Virus genome (UHGV): UHGV-1962423
DNA: 64,000 nucleotides
Direction: 5' to 3' (one strand)
Origin: a virus
Shown one piece after another: positions 6,918-64,000 of this stretch. The notes beneath the pieces were generated by a model that saw only the letters and a program-made list of their open reading frames with translations, ran no database searches and was not told where the DNA came from. Positions within the stretch are counted from its first letter, which is position 1. Each line of letters begins with the position of its first letter. The translations under genes were made by a program, and so were the position numbers.

Positions 6918-6958
6918 TTCAGATATATATTACTTAGGTGAGAGAATTACGTAATACT
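6918..6958 (+). promoter_or_regulatory. conserved promoter-like box TTCAGATATATATTACTTAGGTGAGA plus palindromic hairpin
   Basis: One of five near-identical AT-rich boxes in the window; hairpin core attacgtaat at 6946-6955; about 45 nt upstream of ATG 6991. Confidence 0.6.
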
Positions 6959-7188: not shown

Positions 7189-8004
7189 ATGATTACTATT
7201 AAAGATTATTTTCCGCGTGGGTTGAGCAATGAAAACTTCGTTCCAACTGAAGACATTGCCATCGTTGCAGAGTCCAGCGATAAGTCTTTTAAACTCTACT
7301 TGAGTACGGCAGCAGGAAAATCCACTCTTATCCTTCGTGAACCTGAAGTGATAAGCATCTGCTCGTTTGGGGGTGGTGTAGAAGGAACGATTAACTGGTT
7401 GAAATCCAGAATGCATCGTTTGCTTATCGTGAATACCGATCCTGTGATTCGTTTACAGCAATTGAAATCGTTGAATGAAATTATCGTCGGATTATTGGAA
7501 CATGAAACGTTTGGTAATGCTGAGATTGCGGAAGCGATTAAATCTGTAGAACTAATCGAGTGGAGCGATATCGAATACGAACGTGCTGGGTTATTCGCAA
7601 TGTACGGTGATGATAATCCCGTTGCGTTTGCACAAACGTTGGATAATGTTACCGTAACAGCGCGCGTATTGTTTGGTTTACAACGTGTTGAGTTTGAACT
7701 GAAACACGTCTACGTGAGCAATAAACCGGAGATGGTGGAGACATTGATTCGTGCTTTCGCATACCCGTTAGACGGTGAATGGGAACAGCAGATTAATGAA
7801 GCGTTAGAAGCCATGCATTTCCTGGCTGAAACGTTAAGGAAGGATGAGAAATTGAAAGGTCGTGTTTATCCAGAACACGATTTTGTTTGTGAAGAATGTG
7901 GAGCACAGTATCAAATCCGTGTTCCTTTAACCGGCCTAACATTCCCGCAAGCCAACGTGCAATGTAAGGAATGTGGTCATGTTCAATACGTAGCGATTAA
8001 ATAA
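7189..8004 (+). CDS. hypothetical protein with C-terminal zinc ribbon (271 aa)
   Basis: GGAG RBS; C-terminal CEECG...(21 aa)...CKECG pair of CxxC motifs. Confidence 0.75.
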   Translation: MITIKDYFPRGLSNENFVPTEDIAIVAESSDKSFKLYLSTAAGKSTLILREPEVISICSFGGGVEGTINWLKSRMHRLLIVNTDPVIRLQQLKSLNEIIVGLLEHETFGNAEIAEAIKSVELIEWSDIEYERAGLFAMYGDDNPVAFAQTLDNVTVTARVLFGLQRVEFELKHVYVSNKPEMVETLIRAFAYPLDGEWEQQINEALEAMHFLAETLRKDEKLKGRVYPEHDFVCEECGAQYQIRVPLTGLTFPQANVQCKECGHVQYVAIK

Positions 8005-8010
8005 AAGCAA

Positions 8011-8055
8011 CCCCTAATCCCGAAAAGGATTAGGGGTACACTTTATTTATTTTCG
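8011..8055 (+). terminator. rho-independent terminator
   Basis: cccctaatcc-cgaaaa-ggattagggg followed by T-rich tract. Confidence 0.7.
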
Positions 8056-10518: not shown

Positions 10519-10531
10519 GGAGCATCCTTAA

Positions 10532-11056
10532 ATGCAAATTCGTTTTAGTCCACCGTGGGAAGTTCAGCCTAACATAGATAAAGGCGCTGCCGTTAAAAGT
10601 GTAGAATTGCTCCAGGCAGGGTTCTTTAACTGGTTATATGACTGTCCGAATGGTTTCAGTTCTATCATCTTACCTGAAGTAAGTCGTTCTGCTATTTATA
10701 AAGCGTTAATGGCTCCGCCTGTACTTCCAGGTAAATATTATGATCAGGTGTTACGTCTGGTCGAATCAGGCGAAAAGGTTTCCCTTGACGATTTATATGG
10801 GGAAACAATTCCTTGTCGCTTACGCTGGGTCTTTACCCAACGTGGTGATACGATTGTGGCGTCATTTGCAGAAGCGAAGTCCGGTTCGGGTTTTTCTTCG
10901 GGTGAAGACCACGCTGCGAAAAAGATGTTCTGCGCAGAACTTTTTAAATATATGCGTACCAAGACTCGCGTCGTGGATGACTGCTTCAGTACCTCAACGC
11001 AGTTTGCCGCTAACGAAGTGCTGACGCAATTATACGCATGTCATTTATCTCATTAA
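10532..11056 (+). CDS. hypothetical protein (174 aa)
   Basis: ATG 10532 with GGAG 9 nt upstream; immediately precedes the highly expressed 761-aa gene. Confidence 0.7.
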   Translation: MQIRFSPPWEVQPNIDKGAAVKSVELLQAGFFNWLYDCPNGFSSIILPEVSRSAIYKALMAPPVLPGKYYDQVLRLVESGEKVSLDDLYGETIPCRLRWVFTQRGDTIVASFAEAKSGSGFSSGEDHAAKKMFCAELFKYMRTKTRVVDDCFSTSTQFAANEVLTQLYACHLSH

Positions 11057-11068
11057 GGTATTAAACAA

Positions 11069-13354
11069 ATGAAAGATACCCGAATCTCTAATTTAGAGAA
11101 ACTCGTAGAAGCCGGTACTAGTCTGGCCCAAAACGTCATCGGCAACAACACCGCCAGCGAAATGTGGAAGACGATTGTTGCAGGCGAGTCCGTACGTAGC
11201 AACGCAAAAGTATTTGGCGCTCTGCGTGACGAAGCATCACAGCACTATGCCAACGCTTTTGGCGGCAAGAAAATGTCTCATGCTGCGACCGTCGCTTCCG
11301 CAATGATTCTGGGCGTAGCTAACCACGGTAAAGACCTGCAAGAACGTGTTGCCCAGGAATACGCTAAGCCGGAATTCCACACCAAGTATAACCTGGATAT
11401 TGGTATCCCTGGTGCGCAAGGTGGTGATTGGGGTCGTGAGCGTATGGTTGTTGCTCAGGAATACTACAGCAACAAAGACTACGACAAAAACTTGGGCCTG
11501 ACCTGGACCCTGAACGTACGTGCTCTGGAAACTCAGTCCAAGTTTGCTGAAACACTGTTCCCGACCATTACCGTTGACACCAACGATGTTGGTATTACCG
11601 TACGTACTAAAGTGACTACCGTTTCTCGCGGTATCATGAACGCGCTGCTGAGCAAAGACGTCGTTGAAGATCATCGTCGTCCGCTGCACAACGCACTGAC
11701 TGACCACACCGTTCTCCAGGACGAAGCGATCAACATCGTTCCTTACGTAATGGAAACCGGTGAAAACCAGGAATACTTCGTAAGCGAAGATCTGGTTCCG
11801 AACGAAAAAGTTCGCCTGGGTCGTGTACCTCCGTATCCGACTAACTACCTGAGCTTTGCAAACGACACGCTGAACCTGTTCCAGCTGTCTGCGCATCCGG
11901 GTATCGTTCAGGAAGGTTACGATGAAACTGATGAAATCGCACCGGGTTGTGCTCTGGGCAGCCTGCTGATTTCTGTACGTAAACCGGCCGAAGAAGCGAA
12001 AGCGGGTAAATTCATCAAACTGCACGTTCGTGACATGCAGTTCGCAACCTTCCAGCGTCCTGCTGAAGGTGACGGCCGTGAACTGGTTCTGCAATTCCGT
12101 CGTACCGCGTTCTCTCTGAATGCGAAAACCACTGACTGGAAAGGCGACGCTATTCCGGCACTGCAAGCACTGGGCCAGAACTCCTACACCCTGCGCTACG
12201 TTATCACCATCACCATGTCCCTGTTCACCAGCGGCCAGTTCGGTGGTAAAGTAGACATTTCCGGCCACAAACTGGAAATCGAAGGTCTGTACGATGCAAC
12301 TGGTAACAAAGTTGATACCAAGTCTGGTACCGGCAAAGTTATCCTGGATGGCCTGAAACTCGAACTGATGGGCTGGCGCTTCGATGGTACTCGTACCAAC
12401 GAAAACCGTCGTACCCAGGGTCTGCTGCTTGACCCAATTTGGGAACAGGAAAACTACAAACTGCAATACGGTTCTCCGATTCTGACCAAGTCTCCGGTTG
12501 GTGTTGAATACGACGACACTGAACGTCTGGATGACCTGATCTCTGCGGTGAACATCCGTAACGAACAGCTGGCTATTACTCAGACGCTGTCTTACACTGA
12601 AGCAGTACGTAACGCAGCCGCTGCGATGATCACTCCGTGGGACAAACCGGCTATCCGTGGTCTGGGCCGTCACTGGGTTGCTCCGTGGTTCAAAGAGTCT
12701 GACTACAAAGTCGATGAAGTTGTTCAGTCTCTGGATACCAAAGAAGCGCTGATCAACGCTCGTCAGGGTCTGTTGCAGCGTATCGGTAGCCAGGTAACTC
12801 AGGCTATCCAGGATTCTCGTTTCATTCCTGCACTGCGCCTGCTGACCGCTGATCCGGACATTCTTCCGAAAGTTATTATCGCAACTGACGAACCGACTGC
12901 ATCCATGCTGCTGCTGGTTCAGGGCGACCAACGTCTGCTGGGCGACCGTTATGAATACGAAGTCGTTACCACCAACGATGACCGCTGGCGTATCTACAAC
13001 GCAGCTGACGATTCCTGGACTCGTCGTCTGCAATGGTTCCTGAAAGTTCCGACTGCGGACGATGGTTCCTACTGCGTACTGAACTGGGGTAACCACTTCT
13101 GGTCTCCGATCATGGTTACCAACATCAACATTCAGCGTAACGGTTCTACTTCTAAAGAACTGGCTGTACAGCCGCGTAACGCGCATATCTGCCACTGCCC
13201 GATCACTGGTCTGATTTGGGTTAAAGGCATCACCAAACTGGTTGAAGAAAAACTGGCTTACAACGTTTCTGTAGAACAGAACGGCCAGAAACAAACCGAA
13301 GGTGGTGTAGCAGGTAACCTTGCTGTCGAAGGCAAAGCTACCGCTGGTAAATAA
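11069..13354 (+). CDS. highly expressed major virion structural protein, possibly major capsid protein (761 aa)
   Basis: Strongest codon bias in the window (CTG, CGT, GGT, AAC, GAA), strong terminator downstream. Capsid assignment is inference from size and expression signature only. Confidence 0.85.
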   Translation: MKDTRISNLEKLVEAGTSLAQNVIGNNTASEMWKTIVAGESVRSNAKVFGALRDEASQHYANAFGGKKMSHAATVASAMILGVANHGKDLQERVAQEYAKPEFHTKYNLDIGIPGAQGGDWGRERMVVAQEYYSNKDYDKNLGLTWTLNVRALETQSKFAETLFPTITVDTNDVGITVRTKVTTVSRGIMNALLSKDVVEDHRRPLHNALTDHTVLQDEAINIVPYVMETGENQEYFVSEDLVPNEKVRLGRVPPYPTNYLSFANDTLNLFQLSAHPGIVQEGYDETDEIAPGCALGSLLISVRKPAEEAKAGKFIKLHVRDMQFATFQRPAEGDGRELVLQFRRTAFSLNAKTTDWKGDAIPALQALGQNSYTLRYVITITMSLFTSGQFGGKVDISGHKLEIEGLYDATGNKVDTKSGTGKVILDGLKLELMGWRFDGTRTNENRRTQGLLLDPIWEQENYKLQYGSPILTKSPVGVEYDDTERLDDLISAVNIRNEQLAITQTLSYTEAVRNAAAAMITPWDKPAIRGLGRHWVAPWFKESDYKVDEVVQSLDTKEALINARQGLLQRIGSQVTQAIQDSRFIPALRLLTADPDILPKVIIATDEPTASMLLLVQGDQRLLGDRYEYEVVTTNDDRWRIYNAADDSWTRRLQWFLKVPTADDGSYCVLNWGNHFWSPIMVTNINIQRNGSTSKELAVQPRNAHICHCPITGLIWVKGITKLVEEKLAYNVSVEQNGQKQTEGGVAGNLAVEGKATAGK

Positions 13355-13368
13355 TATCGAATAAAAAG

Positions 13369-13410
13369 TGTCTAAGCCCCAAAAGGGCTTAGACCTTTTA
13401 TTTTTTTCTT
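13369..13410 (+). terminator. strong rho-independent terminator
   Basis: tctaagccc-caaaa-gggcttaga followed by ttttatttttttc. Confidence 0.8.
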
Positions 13411-13535
13411 TCTATTATTTTTCGGATAGATATTATTAAAGAGAGACTGTCAGTTGGTTTAAAGGAGAGTTTATGGAAAAATTACAGTTAAAACTAAAGA
13501 TATGTACCATTATTAAAACTTAATCTGGCCCTTAC

Positions 13536-33795: not shown

Positions 33796-33835
33796 TCAGA
33801 TATATATTACCTTAGTGAGATTACACAGTAATCTC
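33795..33835 (+). promoter_or_regulatory. conserved promoter-like box CTCAGATATATATTACCTTAGTGAGA plus hairpin
   Basis: Same box as at 6918, 53683 and 58071; hairpin gagattac-acag-gtaatctc; about 50 nt upstream of ATG 33870. Confidence 0.6.
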
Positions 33836-37867: not shown

Positions 37868-38374
37868 ATGAGTGAGACTCTGGATTTTAATCAGCTCGAA
37901 CAACACGATTTTGATCTCGGTGTTCGTGATATCGATGCTGATCATGAAACACGTTGTAAAGAGCTGTTTAACCGTTACGGTCAGCTCATCACCGGTGCCT
38001 CTGATGACACCGAATTCAGTTTAGATGAGTTTGAAAAAGTTTTGTCGTGTTTTATCACCGATTGCCTGGCGAAGAAAGCGTTACTTGTAGAACTGAACTT
38101 AGACTCCGTCGAACCTACCGATGCCCACGCGGTGTTGAAAGAATCCATTATCCCAACTGATGAGATTATGGACACGGTAGCAGGTATTCGTGGTACGTTT
38201 GAAACCGCTGTAGATGAATACACGGAACAGCTTCGTGAGTCAGGACTGACGTTGTGTGCGCCAGCAGGCGAGCAATTACCGTCCGACGCAGAAACTGAAG
38301 AAGCGCGTAGCCGCTTAGCACGTTATGTTATCACGTCTATCTTGGTAGATGATCGCGAAGAGAATCTGCTGTAA
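37868..38374 (+). CDS. strongly acidic protein, candidate DNA mimic (168 aa)
   Basis: Asp/Glu-rich throughout (DFDLGVRDIDADHE, DDTEFSLDEFE, ETEEARS); function is inference. Confidence 0.65.
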   Translation: MSETLDFNQLEQHDFDLGVRDIDADHETRCKELFNRYGQLITGASDDTEFSLDEFEKVLSCFITDCLAKKALLVELNLDSVEPTDAHAVLKESIIPTDEIMDTVAGIRGTFETAVDEYTEQLRESGLTLCAPAGEQLPSDAETEEARSRLARYVITSILVDDREENLL

Positions 38375-38377
38375 GCT

Positions 38378-38416
38378 GCACCCTCTCTCCAGACGGAGAG
38401 AGGGTGTATTTTTTTA
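38378..38416 (+). terminator. rho-independent terminator
   Basis: caccctctctcc-agac-ggagagagggtg followed by tattttttt. Confidence 0.8.
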
Positions 38417-44892: not shown

Positions 44893-47800
44893 ATGGCTAA
44901 AGCGGTAAAGAAAATTCGTTTACACGATTTACGTCCATACACCGGTGATATCGGTGAAGGCGTTTTACTTTTCTCCAAGGATGAGAAAGATTATAAGTTA
45001 CCAGTCCGTGAGGTTATTGCAGATATTGACACCGTACGTAATGCGGTGGCTGATGCACAAACAGCAGCAGCACAATCACAAGAAGCTGCAACTCAGGCTA
45101 CGCAAGCAAAAGTTTTAGCAGAAGCAGCAAAACAACAAACTGACACAGTTGCGGCAACGGTTGCACAACAAGCGCAAACCGTAACCGAAAAAGCAACAGA
45201 AGTCAGTACAAAACATACCGAAGTGTTAGCCGCGAAAACGGCGGTAGACGCTCAGGCTGTGTCCATTAATGAGAAAGCACAAGCGGTAGCGACAAGTGAG
45301 GCAAACGTCACACAAGCAGAAACTACCGTTACGAAGAAAGCAGAAACTGTTGCCACACAAGCCGGGCGGGTCGAACAGTCACTTACGGCAGTTAACGAAG
45401 CTGTTGCGTCGGTAGAGTCGTCGAAAGCTGCCGTAGAAGCTAAAGCAACACAAGTTACTTCAGACAAAGAAACCGCAGAGAATGCGGCAACTCGTTCTGA
45501 GGCAGCCGCTAAGCGTGCGGAAGAAATCGTTGCTCAAGGTACTGTTGATGCAACAACGACCAGTAAAGGTGTCGTTAAACTTAATAATACCTTAACCAGT
45601 GACTCTGTTACTGAAGCGGCTACACCGTCAACGGTTAAGCAGTTAAATGATGAATTGCAGTTAAAAGCAAACCGTCACAACCCAACTTTTACCGGTGTGG
45701 TAAAAGCACCGACTCCTGCTTCGGATTCTAACGACACGAGCGTCTCAACGACTGCATGGGTACGGCAAGCGATTGCTGAATTAGTGGACTCTTCACCCGA
45801 GACGTTAGATACGTTATCAGAAATTGCAGCCGCGTTAGGAAACGATCCTAACTTTGCGACAACGATAACGAACCAACTAGCGGGTAAACAGCCGTTAAGT
45901 CCGTTACTGACAGCGATTGCCGCAGTCACCACCGCTGCAAACAAACTCCCTTACTTTACCGGTAGTAATCAGGTAGGGTTAGCGGATTTCACCTCGACTG
46001 CTCGCGAATTATTAGCGAAAGGGTCGACGGCCGATATCATCAGCTTCCTGGGGTTGAAAACCACCGTTGATAAAGCTGCGGGCGCTATGCAACGTAGTTC
46101 TAACGGTGCCGATATTCCCGATAAAGCCACCTTCGCGAAGAACATCGGGTTGTCAGCAGAGACGTACCTGAAGTTTAATGGGGAGATGCCAGTAGATGCA
46201 GACATCAACACCTTCGGCCCGGTTGAAGCGTTTATGGGCGTTTGGTCTAAAGCCACGTCTACGAACGCAACAGTTGCAAAGAATTTTCCAGAAGAAAACG
46301 CAGTTGGTTGTTTAGAAGTTTTCAAAGCGGGTAACTACAGCGGAAGTCAACGTTTTACTGTACGTAACGGTAACATCTATACACGTCATCTTACTGCTGC
46401 ATGGAATGGGACAAACGGTCCTTGGTCAGAATGGCGTAATGTTGCTGGTTCCGCCAGAACGTTGAACGAACAAAATAATCTGAATGACTTGGGTGGTGAG
46501 GCCGCACTAGGTGTTTGGAGAAACAGTTCGAGTACATTAGCAACAACCGCGCTGAATTATCCTGAAGAAGGCTCTTTTGCCCAGGGCGTATTAGAAGTTC
46601 TCAAAGGTGGCAACTATAGTTACACACAACGCTACACTACCCGCAGAGGCAATGTATACGTTCGTTGTCTACAAGCCACGTGGGACGCTTCAAACCCGCA
46701 ATGGGAAGAATGGCGCTGTGTTGGTCATCAATCTGTCAGCACATATTTCGAAGGCGATCTCGACACGTTAACTTCGCCTAACCGTTATAGCATTACTGAT
46801 AAAGCGACAAACGTTCCTTTAATCGACGGTACTAAAATTATCGGTATCTTGGACGTCAGTCGTCGTTTTGATAACATTAGTGTCGAACAAAAATTCACCT
46901 CGTTTGGTTCTGGGAGCAAAACTACAGGGCGTATTTTCACACGTGTATTCTCCGGTCAATCAAACGGTAAATGGAGTGAGTGGCGAGAGGTTTTCACCTC
47001 GTATTCACTTCCGTTAGTTTTAGGTATCGGTGGGGTTGCAGCTAAGGTTGACCCGTTAGACTGGCAAACCTACGACTTCGTTCCTGGACAGATGTTAACG
47101 ACGCCGTTGAACACCATGAAAAACATTCCTGCAGGAATGGATTGGGGTACTATTGACGGTAACTTAGTTAACATCCTTGTAGGGCCGTCTGACGACACCG
47201 GTACTGGTCGGAGTATGCTGGTTTGGCGTAGCACAGTGTCTGTTGCTAACTATCGCTTCTTTGCGGTACGTATCGCTGGTGAGAAGGGTAGTCGTACGAT
47301 TACGCCGCGTCAGATGCCTGTGTTGAACGCAGCGCACACCTGGTCAGAGAAACAAACGTTCTCTAAAGGTTTAGCGGGTGAATTAACCGGTAATGCTTCT
47401 TCAGCAACGAAACTTCAAACAGCCCGTTTAATCGGCGGCGTAAGTTTCGACGGCACCAAGGACATTGCACTCCCTGGCGTTAACGCACAAGGTACGCAGA
47501 ACACCACTGGGAATGCGGCTACCGCAACCAAATTACAAACGGCTAGAAATATCAACGGTGTGAAATTCGATGGCTCTGGAGACATCAATATCAACACCTT
47601 AGTAGGTCGTGGACGTGTCACTGCTCTGGCTGGATCAAACAAAGGTACACCTGGTATCCAGATGTACGAGGTTTACAATAACGGTTATCCGACCGCGTAT
47701 GGTAATTTACTGCATTTAGGTGGTGCTACTGCCGTAGGTGAAGGTGAACTACTGATCGGTTGGTCTGGTACCAGTGGCGCACACGCACCTGTTTATATCC

Positions 47801-49209
47801 GTAGTCGTCGAGACACTACAGATGCGCCGTGGTCAGAATGGGCGCAAGTTTATACTGCACGAGACAGCATTCCGGGTGTCAACACCACAGGTAATCAGGA
47901 TACGACCGGAAACGCAGCTACCGCTACAAAACTTAAAACCACACGTAAAATAGGCGGGGTTAATTTTGACGGAACGGGTGATATTAACCTACCAGGTGTA
48001 AACCAGCAGGGCAACCAGAACACAACAGGTAACGCTGCGACAGCGACTAAACTCCAGACTGCCCGAAATATTGGTGGTGTGGCTTTCGATGGTACTAAAG
48101 ACATCAGTTTACCTGGGGTAAACCAAACAGGGAATCAGTCAACTACGGGGAACGCTGCTACTGCAACGAAGTTGCAGACAGCAAGAAGTATCAACAACGT
48201 ACCATTCGATGGTTCGAAAGATATTACTCTAACGCCAAGTAATATCGGTGCGGCTGCCTCCTCAATGACTTGGTTAAATACCGGGGATAATGGTGCAGCG
48301 CTTAGTACAGATTCTTTTATTACTTTGTTGCAAAATAACGGGGCTTTTAATTCCAGAACTTGGATAGCCCGATGCTCTTGGGCGTATGCTCAAAATGGCG
48401 TGATTCCAGATAGTGAAACAAAGTGCGGTACTATTCCACTTGCAGGCTCAGTTATTGAAGTTGTAAGTTTTGGGATGACCAACTACACCATTCGTATCAC
48501 AACCCCTACGACGACATCGGTTAGCGGAGCAAAAACCAACTCTGAGTTTATTTATTGCTATAATGGTAAAGATTATTCTCCAGGTTGGCGACGGCAGTAT
48601 AACACTGTTAATAAACCGTCTGCTAGTGACGTTGGCGCTCTACCAACTGGTGGCGGTACTGTCAGTGGCGATTTGACGGTTAATGGTAAACTGGTTACGA
48701 AAAATGCCGATTTTCGAATTGCTTACGGTAGTTACGGTTTCATTTTACGTAACGATGGCAATAGCACCTATTTCTTAGTAACAGCATCTGGTCAAGCTGC
48801 AACGGGTTCCTGGAATAACTTACGACCGATGTATTTTAGCAACTCTACCGGTCAAGTAACCTTCGGGCACAACGTTACTGGTAACGGGAACGGTTCGTTT
48901 AACGACGTACAGATTCGTTCTGACCGTCGTAACAAACGTAATCTGGTGAAACTGGATAATGCATTAGACCGTTTAGAACTCCTTACCGGGTATCTGTACG
49001 AAGTTCAACATCCTGACGATGGATGGAATACTTCGGTAGGCTTAATTGCCCAGGATGCATTAGTTGCGTTACCTGAATTGGTTACTGAAGACGATGACGC
49101 TATTTCTGGTGAAAAACGTTTACGTTTGAACTATAATGGTGTTATTGCGTTGTTGGTAGAGGGCATTAAAGACCTTCGTCGTGAGCTTAAGGAACTCAAG
49201 GGGAAATAA
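44893..49209 (+). CDS. long tail fibre protein with C-terminal intramolecular chaperone domain (1438 aa)
   Basis: N-terminal anchor shared with 50934 gene; Ala/Thr/Gln-rich coiled-coil; tandem TGNAATATKLQTAR.IGGV.FDGTKDI.LPGVN repeats like T4 gp12/gp34/gp37 fibre repeats; C-terminus SDRRNKRNLVKLDNALDRLELLTGYLYEV...GLIAQDALVALPELV matches the self-cleaving chaperone of endosialidase/L-shaped fibre proteins. Confidence 0.85.
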   Translation: MAKAVKKIRLHDLRPYTGDIGEGVLLFSKDEKDYKLPVREVIADIDTVRNAVADAQTAAAQSQEAATQATQAKVLAEAAKQQTDTVAATVAQQAQTVTEKATEVSTKHTEVLAAKTAVDAQAVSINEKAQAVATSEANVTQAETTVTKKAETVATQAGRVEQSLTAVNEAVASVESSKAAVEAKATQVTSDKETAENAATRSEAAAKRAEEIVAQGTVDATTTSKGVVKLNNTLTSDSVTEAATPSTVKQLNDELQLKANRHNPTFTGVVKAPTPASDSNDTSVSTTAWVRQAIAELVDSSPETLDTLSEIAAALGNDPNFATTITNQLAGKQPLSPLLTAIAAVTTAANKLPYFTGSNQVGLADFTSTARELLAKGSTADIISFLGLKTTVDKAAGAMQRSSNGADIPDKATFAKNIGLSAETYLKFNGEMPVDADINTFGPVEAFMGVWSKATSTNATVAKNFPEENAVGCLEVFKAGNYSGSQRFTVRNGNIYTRHLTAAWNGTNGPWSEWRNVAGSARTLNEQNNLNDLGGEAALGVWRNSSSTLATTALNYPEEGSFAQGVLEVLKGGNYSYTQRYTTRRGNVYVRCLQATWDASNPQWEEWRCVGHQSVSTYFEGDLDTLTSPNRYSITDKATNVPLIDGTKIIGILDVSRRFDNISVEQKFTSFGSGSKTTGRIFTRVFSGQSNGKWSEWREVFTSYSLPLVLGIGGVAAKVDPLDWQTYDFVPGQMLTTPLNTMKNIPAGMDWGTIDGNLVNILVGPSDDTGTGRSMLVWRSTVSVANYRFFAVRIAGEKGSRTITPRQMPVLNAAHTWSEKQTFSKGLAGELTGNASSATKLQTARLIGGVSFDGTKDIALPGVNAQGTQNTTGNAATATKLQTARNINGVKFDGSGDININTLVGRGRVTALAGSNKGTPGIQMYEVYNNGYPTAYGNLLHLGGATAVGEGELLIGWSGTSGAHAPVYIRSRRDTTDAPWSEWAQVYTARDSIPGVNTTGNQDTTGNAATATKLKTTRKIGGVNFDGTGDINLPGVNQQGNQNTTGNAATATKLQTARNIGGVAFDGTKDISLPGVNQTGNQSTTGNAATATKLQTARSINNVPFDGSKDITLTPSNIGAAASSMTWLNTGDNGAALSTDSFITLLQNNGAFNSRTWIARCSWAYAQNGVIPDSETKCGTIPLAGSVIEVVSFGMTNYTIRITTPTTTSVSGAKTNSEFIYCYNGKDYSPGWRRQYNTVNKPSASDVGALPTGGGTVSGDLTVNGKLVTKNADFRIAYGSYGFILRNDGNSTYFLVTASGQAATGSWNNLRPMYFSNSTGQVTFGHNVTGNGNGSFNDVQIRSDRRNKRNLVKLDNALDRLELLTGYLYEVQHPDDGWNTSVGLIAQDALVALPELVTEDDDAISGEKRLRLNYNGVIALLVEGIKDLRRELKELKGK
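47385..48240 (+). repeat. tandem in-frame coding repeats of the fibre motif
   Basis: At least five copies of the ~25-50 aa unit; nucleotide copies differ at synonymous positions. Confidence 0.7.
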
Positions 49210-53683: not shown

Positions 53684-53728
53684 TCAGATATATATTACCT
53701 AGAGGAGAGTGAAATTTACATTCACTCC
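53683..53728 (+). promoter_or_regulatory. conserved promoter-like box CTCAGATATATATTACCTAGAGGAGAG plus hairpin
   Basis: Box plus hairpin gagtgaa-atttaca-ttcactc; about 30 nt upstream of ATG 53757. Confidence 0.6.
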
Positions 53729-58070: not shown

Positions 58071-58112
58071 TTCAGATATATATTACCTAGGTGAGAGTTC
58101 AGTTACTCTCAC
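58071..58112 (+). promoter_or_regulatory. conserved promoter-like box TTCAGATATATATTACCTAGGTGAGAG plus hairpin
   Basis: Hairpin gtgagagt-tcagtt-actctcac; about 30 nt upstream of ATG 58143. Confidence 0.6.
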
Positions 58113-62636: not shown

Positions 62637-63161
62637 ATGACCAATCAAGAAACTATCTTCGACCTTATTAAAAAGGCTAACCCAGACGCTGAGTTCGACA
62701 CCACCAAAGTCACACTGGGTGACCCGGTCGTAACCACCGGTACGTACAATACCGAAATCACAGTTGCGTCAATTAAGAATCTCGGTTATACTAACGAACA
62801 AACGTTCCAGTATAACCGGATCGACGCAGGTTTGTATTTCCTGAACGTATTACCGAAACTGTTGGTGGAATCGGCAACAACGACCGCTGACTTACTGCCT
62901 GTCATTAACGAGCAGTACAGCCTAACCCTTACAGAAGACGATGTATGGGTAGAGCAGGTTGGTGAGTTACCGTTAGACGGAAGCGCAATCGAACACGGTA
63001 TTTTCTTCCGTCCTGAGTGTCTGACCTGGGTTGGCGGTTTTACAGTGCGAGTTGCGCGTAAACCGGCTGGCGCTACGCCACCCGAGACATGGAGGAGCCC
63101 CAGACCGCCGAATCCTGGCGCACCATGCCCCAGAAGGCGGCCGAGTGGTGGAAAAAGGTAA
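62637..63161 (+). CDS. paralog of 61775 gene, disrupted at the composition junction near 63070
   Basis: First ~145 codons are phage-like and align to the upstream paralog; the remaining frame runs into high-GC DNA with implausible Pro/Arg-rich translation. Confidence 0.5.
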   Translation: MTNQETIFDLIKKANPDAEFDTTKVTLGDPVVTTGTYNTEITVASIKNLGYTNEQTFQYNRIDAGLYFLNVLPKLLVESATTTADLLPVINEQYSLTLTEDDVWVEQVGELPLDGSAIEHGIFFRPECLTWVGGFTVRVARKPAGATPPETWRSPRPPNPGAPCPRRRPSGGKR

Positions 63162-63229
63162 ACGCAGGTGAAATTGAGAACCCGTTTATTTTCGAGCACA
63201 GCAACGAGCCGGAGGACTACGAGTTTTAA
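63089..63229 (+). CDS. small hypothetical ORF in high-GC segment (46 aa)
   Basis: Not in track. ATG 63089 to TAA 63227-63229; followed by a 10-bp-stem hairpin (63241-63273). Weak evidence. Confidence 0.25.
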   Translation: MEEPQTAESWRTMPQKAAEWWKKVNAGEIENPFIFEHSNEPEDYEF

Positions 63230-63304
63230 TTCCAAAGCGCGGAAGAAGGGGCGGCCGGTACGTCCCTTCTTCCTGTGCATTGCTTATAAAGGAGTGTCAC
63301 AGCT

Positions 63305-64000
63305 ATGGCAAAGACCATCATCACCGCCGCGCTGACCGGCGCGGTCACCCCCGCGGGCTACAAGATCCCCGAGACGCCCCAGCAGATCGCCAACGAGGCT
63401 TACGACGCCTGGAAGCTGGGCGCCGCCGTGGTACACCTGCACATGCGGGCCGACGACGGCCTGGGTGCCATGGACAAGGAGAAATTCCGGGAGACCATCC
63501 GGCTTATCCGCAGCCACCAGGACTGTGATGTCATTATCAACTGCACCTCCTCCGGCGCTTCTGCCGAGCATCCCGCCACGGATGAGGAGCGGATGGCCCA
63601 TCACCGGGAGCTGGAGGGCATCGAGATGGGTTCCTATGATGCCGGTACCTTCAACTGGATGCCCGGCGGCGTGTTCGTCAACTCCCCCCAGTTCCTCGAG
63701 AAGCTGGGCGATCTTTACATGGAGAAGGGCATCAAGCCGGAGCTGGAGATCTTTGACGCTGGCATGCTGGGCGTGGCCAGCTACTTCGTGAAGAAGGGCC
63801 ACCTGTCCACCCCCTGCCACTACCAGTTCTGCCTGGGCGTGCTGGGCGGCATGCCCGCCACGGTGGAGAACCTGCTCTACCTGGTGCAGCACATCCCCGC
63901 CGGTTCCACCTGGTCGGCCTTCGGCGTGGGCAAGGGCCCCCTGCCCATCCTGTTCGCCTCCCTGGCCCTGGGCGGCCACATCCGCGTGGGCATGGAGGAC
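63305..64000 (+). CDS. kce: 3-keto-5-aminohexanoate cleavage enzyme-like protein (BKACE/DUF849), 3'-truncated at window edge
   Basis: Not in track because no stop in window. AAAGGAG RBS then MAKTIITAALTGAVTP..., HLHMRADDG, GGHIRVGMED; GC-rich third codon positions; frame open to the end of the window. Confidence 0.7.
   Translation, partial: MAKTIITAALTGAVTPAGYKIPETPQQIANEAYDAWKLGAAVVHLHMRADDGLGAMDKEKFRETIRLIRSHQDCDVIINCTSSGASAEHPATDEERMAHHRELEGIEMGSYDAGTFNWMPGGVFVNSPQFLEKLGDLYMEKGIKPELEIFDAGMLGVASYFVKKGHLSTPCHYQFCLGVLGGMPATVENLLYLVQHIPAGSTWSAFGVGKGPLPILFASLALGGHIRVGMED

Follow-up and report, generated by a model that had tools for sequence, protein, structure and literature searches.

Conserved codon adaptation of the major capsid protein gene in a jumbo phage of the SPN3US/phiKZ lineage

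One gene of the virus genome UHGV-1962423 uses synonymous codons in a manner that sets it apart from its neighbours, raising the question of which protein it encodes and of what has shaped its coding sequence. We analysed a 64,000-nt stretch of this genome (hereafter the window), in which the open reading frame occupies positions 11069..13354 of the plus strand (761 codons plus stop), exactly as reported in a first-pass annotation. That annotation proposed the major capsid protein (MCP) of a large-headed phage and kept a tail sheath as an option. The capsid assignment holds: we give a probability of about 0.93 to the overall reading, in which the gene encodes the MCP of a jumbo myovirus of the SPN3US/phiKZ lineage, owes its codon bias to translational selection and is followed by a hairpin terminator. 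The capsid identity and the codon pattern of this gene were already known and understood, and the finding is in this respect an ordinary one.

The 761-residue protein matches the Pfam family PF25620 (PhiKZ_MCP) with 689.3 bits (E 5e-207; Pfam cut-off 27), residues 72-726 aligning with profile positions 2-634 of 635, and PHROG 3231, the “major head protein” family, with an E-value of 1e-278 over residues 1-750. It is matched by 203 phage records, which are labelled as major capsid or head proteins. Sequence searches against the PDB retrieved the jumbo-phage capsid chains 11bt (E 1.6e-49) and 36za (E 4e-49), followed by 8y6v (phiKZ gp120; E 6e-33 by phmmer) and 8bfl (phiKp24; E 2e-32), each match spanning ~580-630 residues, with the PDB matches covering residues about 124-734. 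An AlphaFold2 (AF2) model computed from 30 sequences was mediocre (mean pLDDT 62.8, pTM 0.53), so that the fold assignment rests mainly on homology to the solved capsid proteins. With this model, the best Foldseek matches were the capsid proteins of phiKZ (8y6v), phiKp24 (8bfl) and S6 (7x30), with probabilities of 0.96-1.00 and with TM-scores of only 0.16-0.39 and an rmsd >24 Å. An identical protein has already been deposited as DAY64645.1, under the name “MAG TPA: major capsid protein [Caudoviricetes sp.]”.

The source phage is read as a jumbo myovirus with a genome of about 222-226 kb; its lineage, that of SPN3US and phiKZ, consists of Seoulvirus-like phages of Enterobacterales that form a nucleus of the chimallin type. 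The window displays the gene order of this lineage, namely a DnaB-like helicase gene on the minus strand, a small ORF and the MCP gene on the plus strand and an RNA-polymerase-like gene, and this arrangement recurs in SPN3US, Asesino, SNUABM_29, SPAsTU, ChrisDB, Machina, Kwan, CR5, EarlPhillipIV and Phobos. Comparisons across the lineage were made between the window and 10 relatives, that is 11 phages from five genera.

Among these relatives, the Salmonella phage SPN3US (Seoulvirus) carries gp75, which shares 78% amino acid identity with the window protein over 733 residues (766 aa versus 761 aa here). The two phages share the succession of a minus-strand helicase gene, a 174-aa ORF, the MCP gene, a 336-aa ORF and the RNA-polymerase-like gene, and the SPN3US MCP gene is similarly biased (ENC 33.2, CAI 0.72) with a terminator at the matching place. 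They differ at both ends of the protein, the N-terminal propeptide (residues 1-130) and the C-terminal tail beginning at residue 734 being far more diverged than the core, and in the intergenic space 3' of the gene, which in SPN3US measures 182 nt rather than 333 nt. With an overall DNA identity of only about 80%, the window phage is a species other than SPN3US and probably belongs to another genus. The top match among isolated phages, at 80% identity, is found in the Erwinia phages Asesino (gp91) and phiEaH2 (Erskinevirus), whose synteny, codon bias and terminator resemble those of the window; Asesino harbors an extra 269-aa gene (gp92) past the terminator, a place occupied in the window by no more than a 16-codon mini-ORF. 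More distant is phiKZ gp120, the founding member of PF25620, which aligns with residues 96-727 in the phmmer search and gives a Foldseek E-value of 8e-26; structurally aligned, the two proteins are only about 20% identical. Closest of all are two 222-kb circular “plasmids”, NZ_CP134650.1 from Enterobacter ludwigii and NZ_CP173450.1 from E. coli 98232, and their 98% DNA identity over the capsid gene, together with the same neighbours, places them in the same phage species as the window. These are phage genomes filed as plasmids, in which the capsid gene is labelled only “hypothetical protein”; Seoul-like jumbo phages in isolate assemblies have been described (bioRxiv 10.1101/2024.12.31.630880).

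The homology extends to the predicted maturation site of the protein. In SPN3US, mass spectrometry (MS) showed that 130 residues of gp75 are taken off at an AXE motif (PMC5694885), and phiKZ gp120 loses 163 N-terminal residues by cleavage after a Glu, leaving a subunit with the HK97-type N-arm, P and A domains and an I domain that builds a T=27 shell (PMC11297242). The A129-Q130-E131|Y132 segment of the window protein aligns with A128-T129-E130|Y131 of gp75, and both E131 and Y132 are kept without exception across 30 homologs. By this alignment, a scaffold-like propeptide of ~131 residues (residues 1-131; 11069..11461, plus strand) would be removed by the phage prohead protease after A129-Q130-E131, at the AXE| motif, making it shorter than that of gp120. 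The predicted mature shell subunit (residues 132-761, 630 aa; 11462..13351, plus strand) would by homology adopt the HK97-type fold, with N-arm, P and A domains and an insertion domain. By MS, SPN3US gp75 is the most abundant virion protein, and the T=27 shell that it builds contains about 1,560-1,615 copies (PMC5694885, PMC10052503), and by the same homology about 1,560-1,620 copies of the subunit would tile a T=27 head in the window phage.

The codon bias was quantified against the other ORFs of the window. With an ENC of 33.4, the capsid gene ranks lowest of the 66 ORFs of >=100 aa (mean 49.8, sd 5.8). Its CAI, which is approximate and is based on the Sharp & Li weights of E. coli as a proxy for the true host, reaches 0.703, versus 0.291±0.058 for the other 65 ORFs (maximum 0.421; z=7.2). 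ENC needs no reference set and ranks the gene in the same way, which independently supports the CAI result. Synonymous usage differs from that of the remaining ORFs with G=485 (G-test, df 41, p=3e-77), and 2,000 synonymous redraws of the same amino acids with the usage of the other ORFs yielded a CAI of 0.290±0.014 (maximum 0.338), placing the gene at z=30. All six codons that the first-pass annotation had singled out as a bacterial high-expression set are indeed preferred over the rest of the window: CTG (87% vs 20%), CGT (83% vs 57%), GGT (62% vs 48%), AAC (95% vs 61%), GAA (92% vs 71%) and TTC (80% vs 50%). The adaptation is uneven along the gene, with a CAI of 0.75 in the mature part, 0.51 in the propeptide region and 0.43 in the first 76 codons.

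This codon pattern is not peculiar to the window copy but runs through the entire phage lineage, a point that had been missed earlier. All 10 relatives from the five genera have a biased MCP gene (ENC 32.5-35.5, CAI 0.64-0.72), in contrast to their helicase gene (ENC 47-51, CAI 0.30-0.36). The gene has the signature of a translationally selected, host-adapted and highly expressed phage gene, in that its CAI, with E. coli weights as a proxy, exceeds what amino acid content and GC3 provide, and 11/11 orthologs are biased. A bias towards host-preferred codons has been documented for phage head and tail genes (PMC2266997). A search for phage tRNA genes found none within the window, and such tRNAs were set aside as a reason for the codon usage. 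We propose that the capsid protein, being needed in more copies per virion than any other protein, would have had its synonymous sites driven to the highly expressed enterobacterial codon set, and that this translational selection would have raised the GC content of the gene to 51% and removed the codons TTA, CTA and TCA.

The loss of these three codons bears on a 685-codon ORF on the minus strand (11237..13294), which is present exactly as noted earlier and had been regarded as a spurious product of the bias. The antisense frame is aligned codon for codon with the sense frame, so that its stops would arise from sense TTA, CTA and TCA. Only two such codons occur in the capsid gene, at codons 9 and 57, the TCA at 11237 being the antisense stop, and none follows codon 57; at the 4.7% frequency of the neighbours, 685 codons without one would have a probability of 4e-15. 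Depletion of TTA, CTA and TCA in the sense strand therefore opens a long in-register antisense frame as a by-product, and the ORF is a codon-bias artefact rather than a gene.

Several other explanations of the locus were weighed against this reading. The size of the protein and its high-expression codon signature would suit a tail sheath, or some other abundant virion protein, as well as a shell protein. However, the Pfam and PHROG matches are full-length and exclusively to capsid families, with no sheath family matched in either collection, and the PDB entries matched by sequence are capsid chains; the sheath/tube structure of phiKZ, 9xpf, obtained a Foldseek E-value of 0.34 and a probability of 0.03, against up to 1.00 for capsid proteins, and the sheath of SPN3US is a separate gene, gp256 (PMC5694885). 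The family and structure matches thus rule out the sheath option that had been left standing, and its residual probability is negligible. Nor is the antisense frame a real overlapping gene that would partly shape the sense codons, an idea to which we likewise attach almost no probability. A stop-free frame of 558-770 codons does exist in 9/10 relatives, but avoidance of three rare codons in an exactly complementary register accounts for it fully, and in Kwan it is broken, the longest run being 203 codons. Substitutions between the window and SPN3US fall at sense codon positions 1/2/3 in a ratio of 124/115/303, and are thus concentrated at what are first positions of the antisense frame, whose product is 56% identical between the two phages versus 77% for the sense protein. 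The antisense translation is of odd composition (rich in V, F, T, Q and R) and has no match in Pfam or PHROG; neither purifying selection in the antisense frame nor homology speaks for a genuine gene.

The origin of the bias itself could be sought elsewhere. The capsid gene forms a local GC peak (51% vs about 44%), as would be expected of a recent horizontal acquisition from a higher-GC donor without any selection for expression. This is very improbable and we discard it, since the helicase/small ORF/MCP arrangement is the same in five genera with all orthologs biased, so that the capsid gene is ancestral, and since the shift concerns particular codons and not GC content as such: third positions carry more C and less A (0.17 vs 0.25), with G and T unaltered, the T-ending codons GGT, CGT, GTT, GCT and TCT are preferred, and the G-ending GTG, ACG, TCG, GGG and CGG are depleted. 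The bias could also have been selected mainly for a property of the mRNA, such as stability towards RNases, low structure or a lack of internal signals to which the phage RNA polymerase would respond. The strong depletion of third-position A, the far lower adaptation of the first 76 codons and the conserved RNA-level signals on both sides of the gene would agree with this, and selection on mRNA stability or structure would leave a similar trace. We nevertheless consider it unlikely, because the preferred codons correspond one-for-one to the enterobacterial highly-expressed set (CAI 0.70), as predicted by tRNA-matched translational selection, and because phage structural genes have been documented to show just such a host-codon bias (PMC2266997). 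Translational selection, the standard reading of such a bias, is the one that we infer for the window phage.

Downstream of the gene lies an intrinsic terminator (13370..13409, plus strand) formed by a 10-bp GC-rich hairpin (13370..13394; dG about -19.3 kcal/mol) and a T-run, which would end the capsid transcript 16 nt past the stop codon. As an A-run precedes the hairpin, the terminator is possibly bidirectional. A hairpin with T-run is found 3' of the MCP stop codon in 11/11 phages, with differing stem sequences. The first-pass annotation had called this terminator the strongest in the region; the hairpin is there, but within ±5 kb it is equalled by 8004..8043, and across the window it is surpassed by roughly eight to ten others, e.g. 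38373..38408 at -26.7. Upstream, a weak Shine-Dalgarno-like TAAGGT (11054..11059, plus strand) overlaps the stop codon of the preceding ORF, 10 nt 5' of the capsid ATG, and its AAGGT is kept in 7/11 relatives. A scan for sigma-70 promoters around the capsid gene gave 12 sites, no excess over the 14.4±3.9 of shuffled sequence; the scan is uninformative, which is no surprise in phages that transcribe with RNA polymerases of their own.

The preceding ORF (10532..11056, plus strand; 174 aa, phrog_8266), which is co-oriented and ends 12 nt 5' of the capsid ATG, contains a 23-nt element, GTTCTGCGCAGAACTTTTTAAAT (10927..10949, plus strand), made of a 14-nt perfect palindrome, GTTCTGCGCAGAAC, and T5. 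The element sits 120-142 nt 5' of the capsid start and is invariant in the 11 phages of five genera; around it (10919-10963), synonymous third-position identity in the ORF rises to 0.96, versus 0.675 gene-wide. A search for further copies in the window found none, which argues for a gene-specific candidate cis-element and rules out a recurring promoter consensus or general late-promoter motif. RNAalifold predicts a candidate structured leader at 10921..11072 (plus strand), headed by this element, with 98% of cells paired and 6 pairs with compensatory changes, a level attained by 2/500 shuffles; this is weak evidence, as it reflects few independent events and a structure derived from the same alignment. 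In the last helix of this model, TCATTT at the end of the upstream ORF pairs with AAATGA at the capsid start codon, and would thereby sequester it. Tentatively, the final ~170 nt of the upstream ORF may have a second role as a cis-regulatory leader of the capsid gene, a suggestion that we rate as possible but somewhat doubtful. The 23-nt element could act as a late-promoter or 5'-end determinant, as an mRNA stabiliser or as a translational-coupling switch, and any such role, if true, would help set the very high capsid output.

In itself, the assignment of the capsid gene is of little weight, with some practical value. It confirms that a pronounced peak of codon adaptation points reliably to the capsid gene when a jumbo-phage genome lacks annotation, and implies that the long antisense ORF produced by such a peak should stay unannotated. 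The capsid genes of the RefSeq “plasmids” NZ_CP134650.1 and NZ_CP173450.1 could now be named. To our knowledge, the late transcription signals of such phages are poorly defined, and the invariant 23-nt element could give a handle on capsid expression in SPN3US-like phages.

The product of the 761-aa gene at 11069..13354 (+) matches the Pfam family PF25620, ‘Bacteriophage PhiKZ major capsid protein gp120’, with 689 bits across positions 2-634 of the 635-position profile, and PHROG 3231, ‘major head protein’, with an E-value of 1e-278. A tblastn search with this protein retrieved 203 phage records, the best of which, all labelled major capsid or head protein, belong to the Erwinia phages phiEaH2, Stratton and Asesino (80%) and to Salmonella phage SPN3US and its relatives (78%). 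The gene is surrounded by a divergent DnaB-like helicase gene on the opposite strand, a 174-aa ORF, a 336-aa ORF and an RNA-polymerase-like gene, and this gene order is identical in SPN3US, Asesino and eight more phages. Sequence matches were also obtained to four sets of solved capsid chains, including phiKZ gp120 (8y6v) and phiKp24 (8bfl). An AlphaFold2 model based on 30 homologs was of moderate quality (mean pLDDT 62.8), and its significant Foldseek matches were solely jumbo-phage capsid proteins (phiKZ, phiKp24 and S6), with probabilities of 0.96-1.00 and TM-scores of just 0.16-0.39. The first-pass annotation had favoured a major capsid protein (MCP) while leaving room for a sheath or another abundant protein; family assignments, phage homologs, gene order and solved chains support its preferred reading, and since the matches are to capsid families and structures, with a Foldseek probability of 0.03 for the phiKZ sheath/tube entry, the sheath is ruled out.

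Codon usage was compared among the 66 non-overlapping ORFs called in the window, each 100 aa or longer. The capsid gene has the lowest ENC (33.4; mean 49.8, sd 5.8) and the highest CAI (0.703; other ORFs 0.291±0.058, maximum 0.421, z=7.2), the latter an approximate value computed with the E. coli weights of Sharp & Li (1987) and in agreement with the reference-free ENC. Its synonymous usage departs from that seen elsewhere in the window (G=485, df 41, p=3e-77), and 2,000 synonymous redraws from the usage of the other ORFs, with amino acids fixed, gave a CAI of 0.290±0.014 (maximum 0.338), placing the observed value 30 sd away. The extreme bias proposed earlier is thus real, as is the preference for each codon then named (share among synonymous codons in brackets): CTG for Leu (87%), CGT for Arg (83%), GGT for Gly (62%), AAC for Asn (95%), GAA for Glu (92%) and TTC for Phe (80%). 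A mere rise in GC does not account for the shift: C gains and A loses share at third positions, with G and T unchanged, and the gene shuns GC-rich GTG, ACG, TCG, GGG and CGG and prefers T-ending GGT, CGT, GTT, GCT and TCT. Along the gene, CAI is 0.43 in the first 76 codons, 0.51 in the predicted propeptide and 0.75 in the mature part.

This bias is a trait of the lineage. Across 11 phages and five genera (the phage studied here, Seoulvirus, Erskinevirus, Machinavirus, Wellingtonvirus and Derbicusvirus), every capsid gene has an ENC of 32.5-35.5 and a CAI of 0.64-0.72, the adjoining helicase gene having values of 47-51 and 0.30-0.36, respectively. A hairpin followed by a T-run lies behind the capsid gene in all 11 phages, with a stem sequence that varies among genera. 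Because the bias is common to the 11 phages, horizontal acquisition as its source is unnecessary and does not fit. Published work shows that phage head and tail genes in general lean towards the codons preferred by the host (PMC2266997).

ORF listing confirmed both the 761-aa gene and a 685-aa ORF on the opposite strand at 11237..13294 (-). The latter lies in the exact complement register of the sense codons, so that its stops can arise only from sense TTA, CTA or TCA; the capsid gene contains just two of these, at codons 9 and 57, and the TCA at 11237 forms the antisense stop. At the neighbours’ frequency of these codons (4.7%), a 685-codon stop-free run would have a probability of 4e-15. Nucleotide differences from SPN3US fall on sense codon positions 1/2/3 in the numbers 124/115/303, and the antisense translation is 56% identical to that of SPN3US versus 77% for the sense protein. 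Pfam and PHROG searches with the antisense translation gave no match, and the stop-free frame, found in most relatives, is interrupted in phage Kwan. The ORF is therefore a shadow of the capsid gene, as had been suspected.

In SPN3US, the homolog gp75 has the highest normalised spectral count among virion proteins; the T=27 head contains 1,560-1,615 copies of it, and the prohead protease gp245 removes its first 130 residues by cutting at an AXE motif (PMC5694885, PMC10052503). PhiKZ gp120, which comprises an HK97 N-arm, P and A domains and an insertion domain, loses 163 residues by a cut after Glu163 (PMC11297242). When the two proteins are aligned, A128-T129-E130|Y131 of SPN3US falls opposite A129-Q130-E131|Y132 of our protein, and E131 and Y132 are invariant among 30 homologs with identity as low as 41%. 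From this alignment, the conserved residues and the processing of both relatives, we predict that the propeptide spans 131 residues (11069..11461) and the mature subunit 630.

Upstream of the capsid start, synonymous change is suppressed inside the 3’ end of the 174-aa ORF (in the region 10919..11072), whose DNA is much more conserved there than in the remainder of the gene. In a codon alignment of the 11 phages, third-position identity of same-amino-acid pairs reaches 0.96 at 10919-10963, versus 0.675 over the whole gene and 0.41-0.65 in its body. A 23-nt core at 10927..10949, GTTCTGCGCAGAACTTTTTAAAT, contains a perfect palindrome of 14 nt with T5 directly behind it and is invariant across the 11 phages and five genera; no second copy was found within the window. 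For positions 10921 to 11072, RNAalifold proposes a structure with 98% of cells paired, whose final helix pairs TCATTT with AAATGA of the capsid start. Its six compensatory pairs, matched by 2 of 500 shuffles, reflect few independent events and a structure derived from the same alignment, and we regard this predicted conserved RNA structure as no more than a lead. The GTTCTGCGCAGAACTTTTTAAAT zone could be a 5’ determinant, stabiliser or coupling device of the capsid mRNA. The divergent helicase gene (start 10518, - strand) and 174-aa ORF (start 10532) are 13 nt apart (10519..10531), and synonymous conservation is also raised (0.80-0.88) over that ORF’s first ~25 codons; the start signals of the two genes must therefore lie within coding sequence.

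The terminator hairpin behind the capsid gene (13370..13394) starts 16 nt past the stop codon and has a GC-rich 10-bp stem with an A-run before it and a T-run after it. It is real and strong, but the claim that it is the strongest of its region holds only loosely: its folding energy of ~-19.3 kcal/mol equals that of 8004..8043, and about eight to ten other sites in the window exceed it, such as 38373..38408 at -26.7. A motif, tttcaGATATATATTACctaggtGAGAg, has exact 12-nt cores at 6922..6933, 33799..33810, 53687..53698 and 58075..58086 (four versus 0.2 expected by chance), all intergenic on the + strand, with a T-rich stretch on their 5’ side and an SD and ATG 60-75 nt downstream. A variant at 13425..13436, behind the capsid terminator, is conserved in SPN3US and Asesino. 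The motif probably serves a phage RNA polymerase as promoter and may resemble the phiKZ early-promoter type. Right behind the capsid terminator and this promoter-like variant comes a 16-codon mini-ORF at 13473..13523 (+) (MEKLQLKLKICTIIKT), preceded by a strong SD, AAAGGAGAG. Its place is taken by the 269-aa gene gp92 in Asesino and by an unannotated 27-codon ORF in SPN3US; it may be a lost gene’s remnant or a small leader peptide.

Elsewhere, a 1,438-aa tail-fibre protein (44893..49209, +) shows mosaic matches to 62 PHROG tail-fibre families and is probably a host-range determinant; AT skew is unusually high in this segment (0.26 at 45-46 kb). GC rises suddenly to ~62% at 63070..64000, apparently through a chimeric join in the assembly or the concatenation of unrelated DNA: in the final ~700 nt, the first 232 residues of a beta-keto acid cleavage enzyme (PF05853, E 2.5e-72) are encoded, which is not phage-like, the last phage ORF (62637..63161, DUF7941) is truncated, and homology to the phage copy in the E. 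coli ‘plasmid’ record NZ_CP173450.1 ends at 63069.

That record (E. coli 98232) and NZ_CP134650.1 (Enterobacter ludwigii) are the same jumbo phage at 97-98% DNA identity in complete assemblies. Both are circular 222-kb, non-mobilizable ‘plasmids’ with nearly all genes ‘hypothetical’; the capsid gene is 98% identical to both in DNA, and over its first 25 kb the window shares 96.8% identity with the E. coli record. An identical protein is public as DAY64645.1 (‘MAG TPA: major capsid protein [Caudoviricetes sp.]’) and is also encoded on metagenome contigs 200-226 kb long. Among the 378 members of its 90% cluster, many derive from isolate assemblies of Salmonella, Shigella and Enterobacter, where they are labelled hypothetical. 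Seoul-like jumbo phages in isolate assemblies have been described (bioRxiv 10.1101/2024.12.31.630880). With the protein, the phage and its isolate occurrence on record, the capsid-gene finding is already known, in kind and in particular, and the ‘plasmid’ records and isolate cluster members fit the published picture of persistent virulent jumbo phages in isolates.
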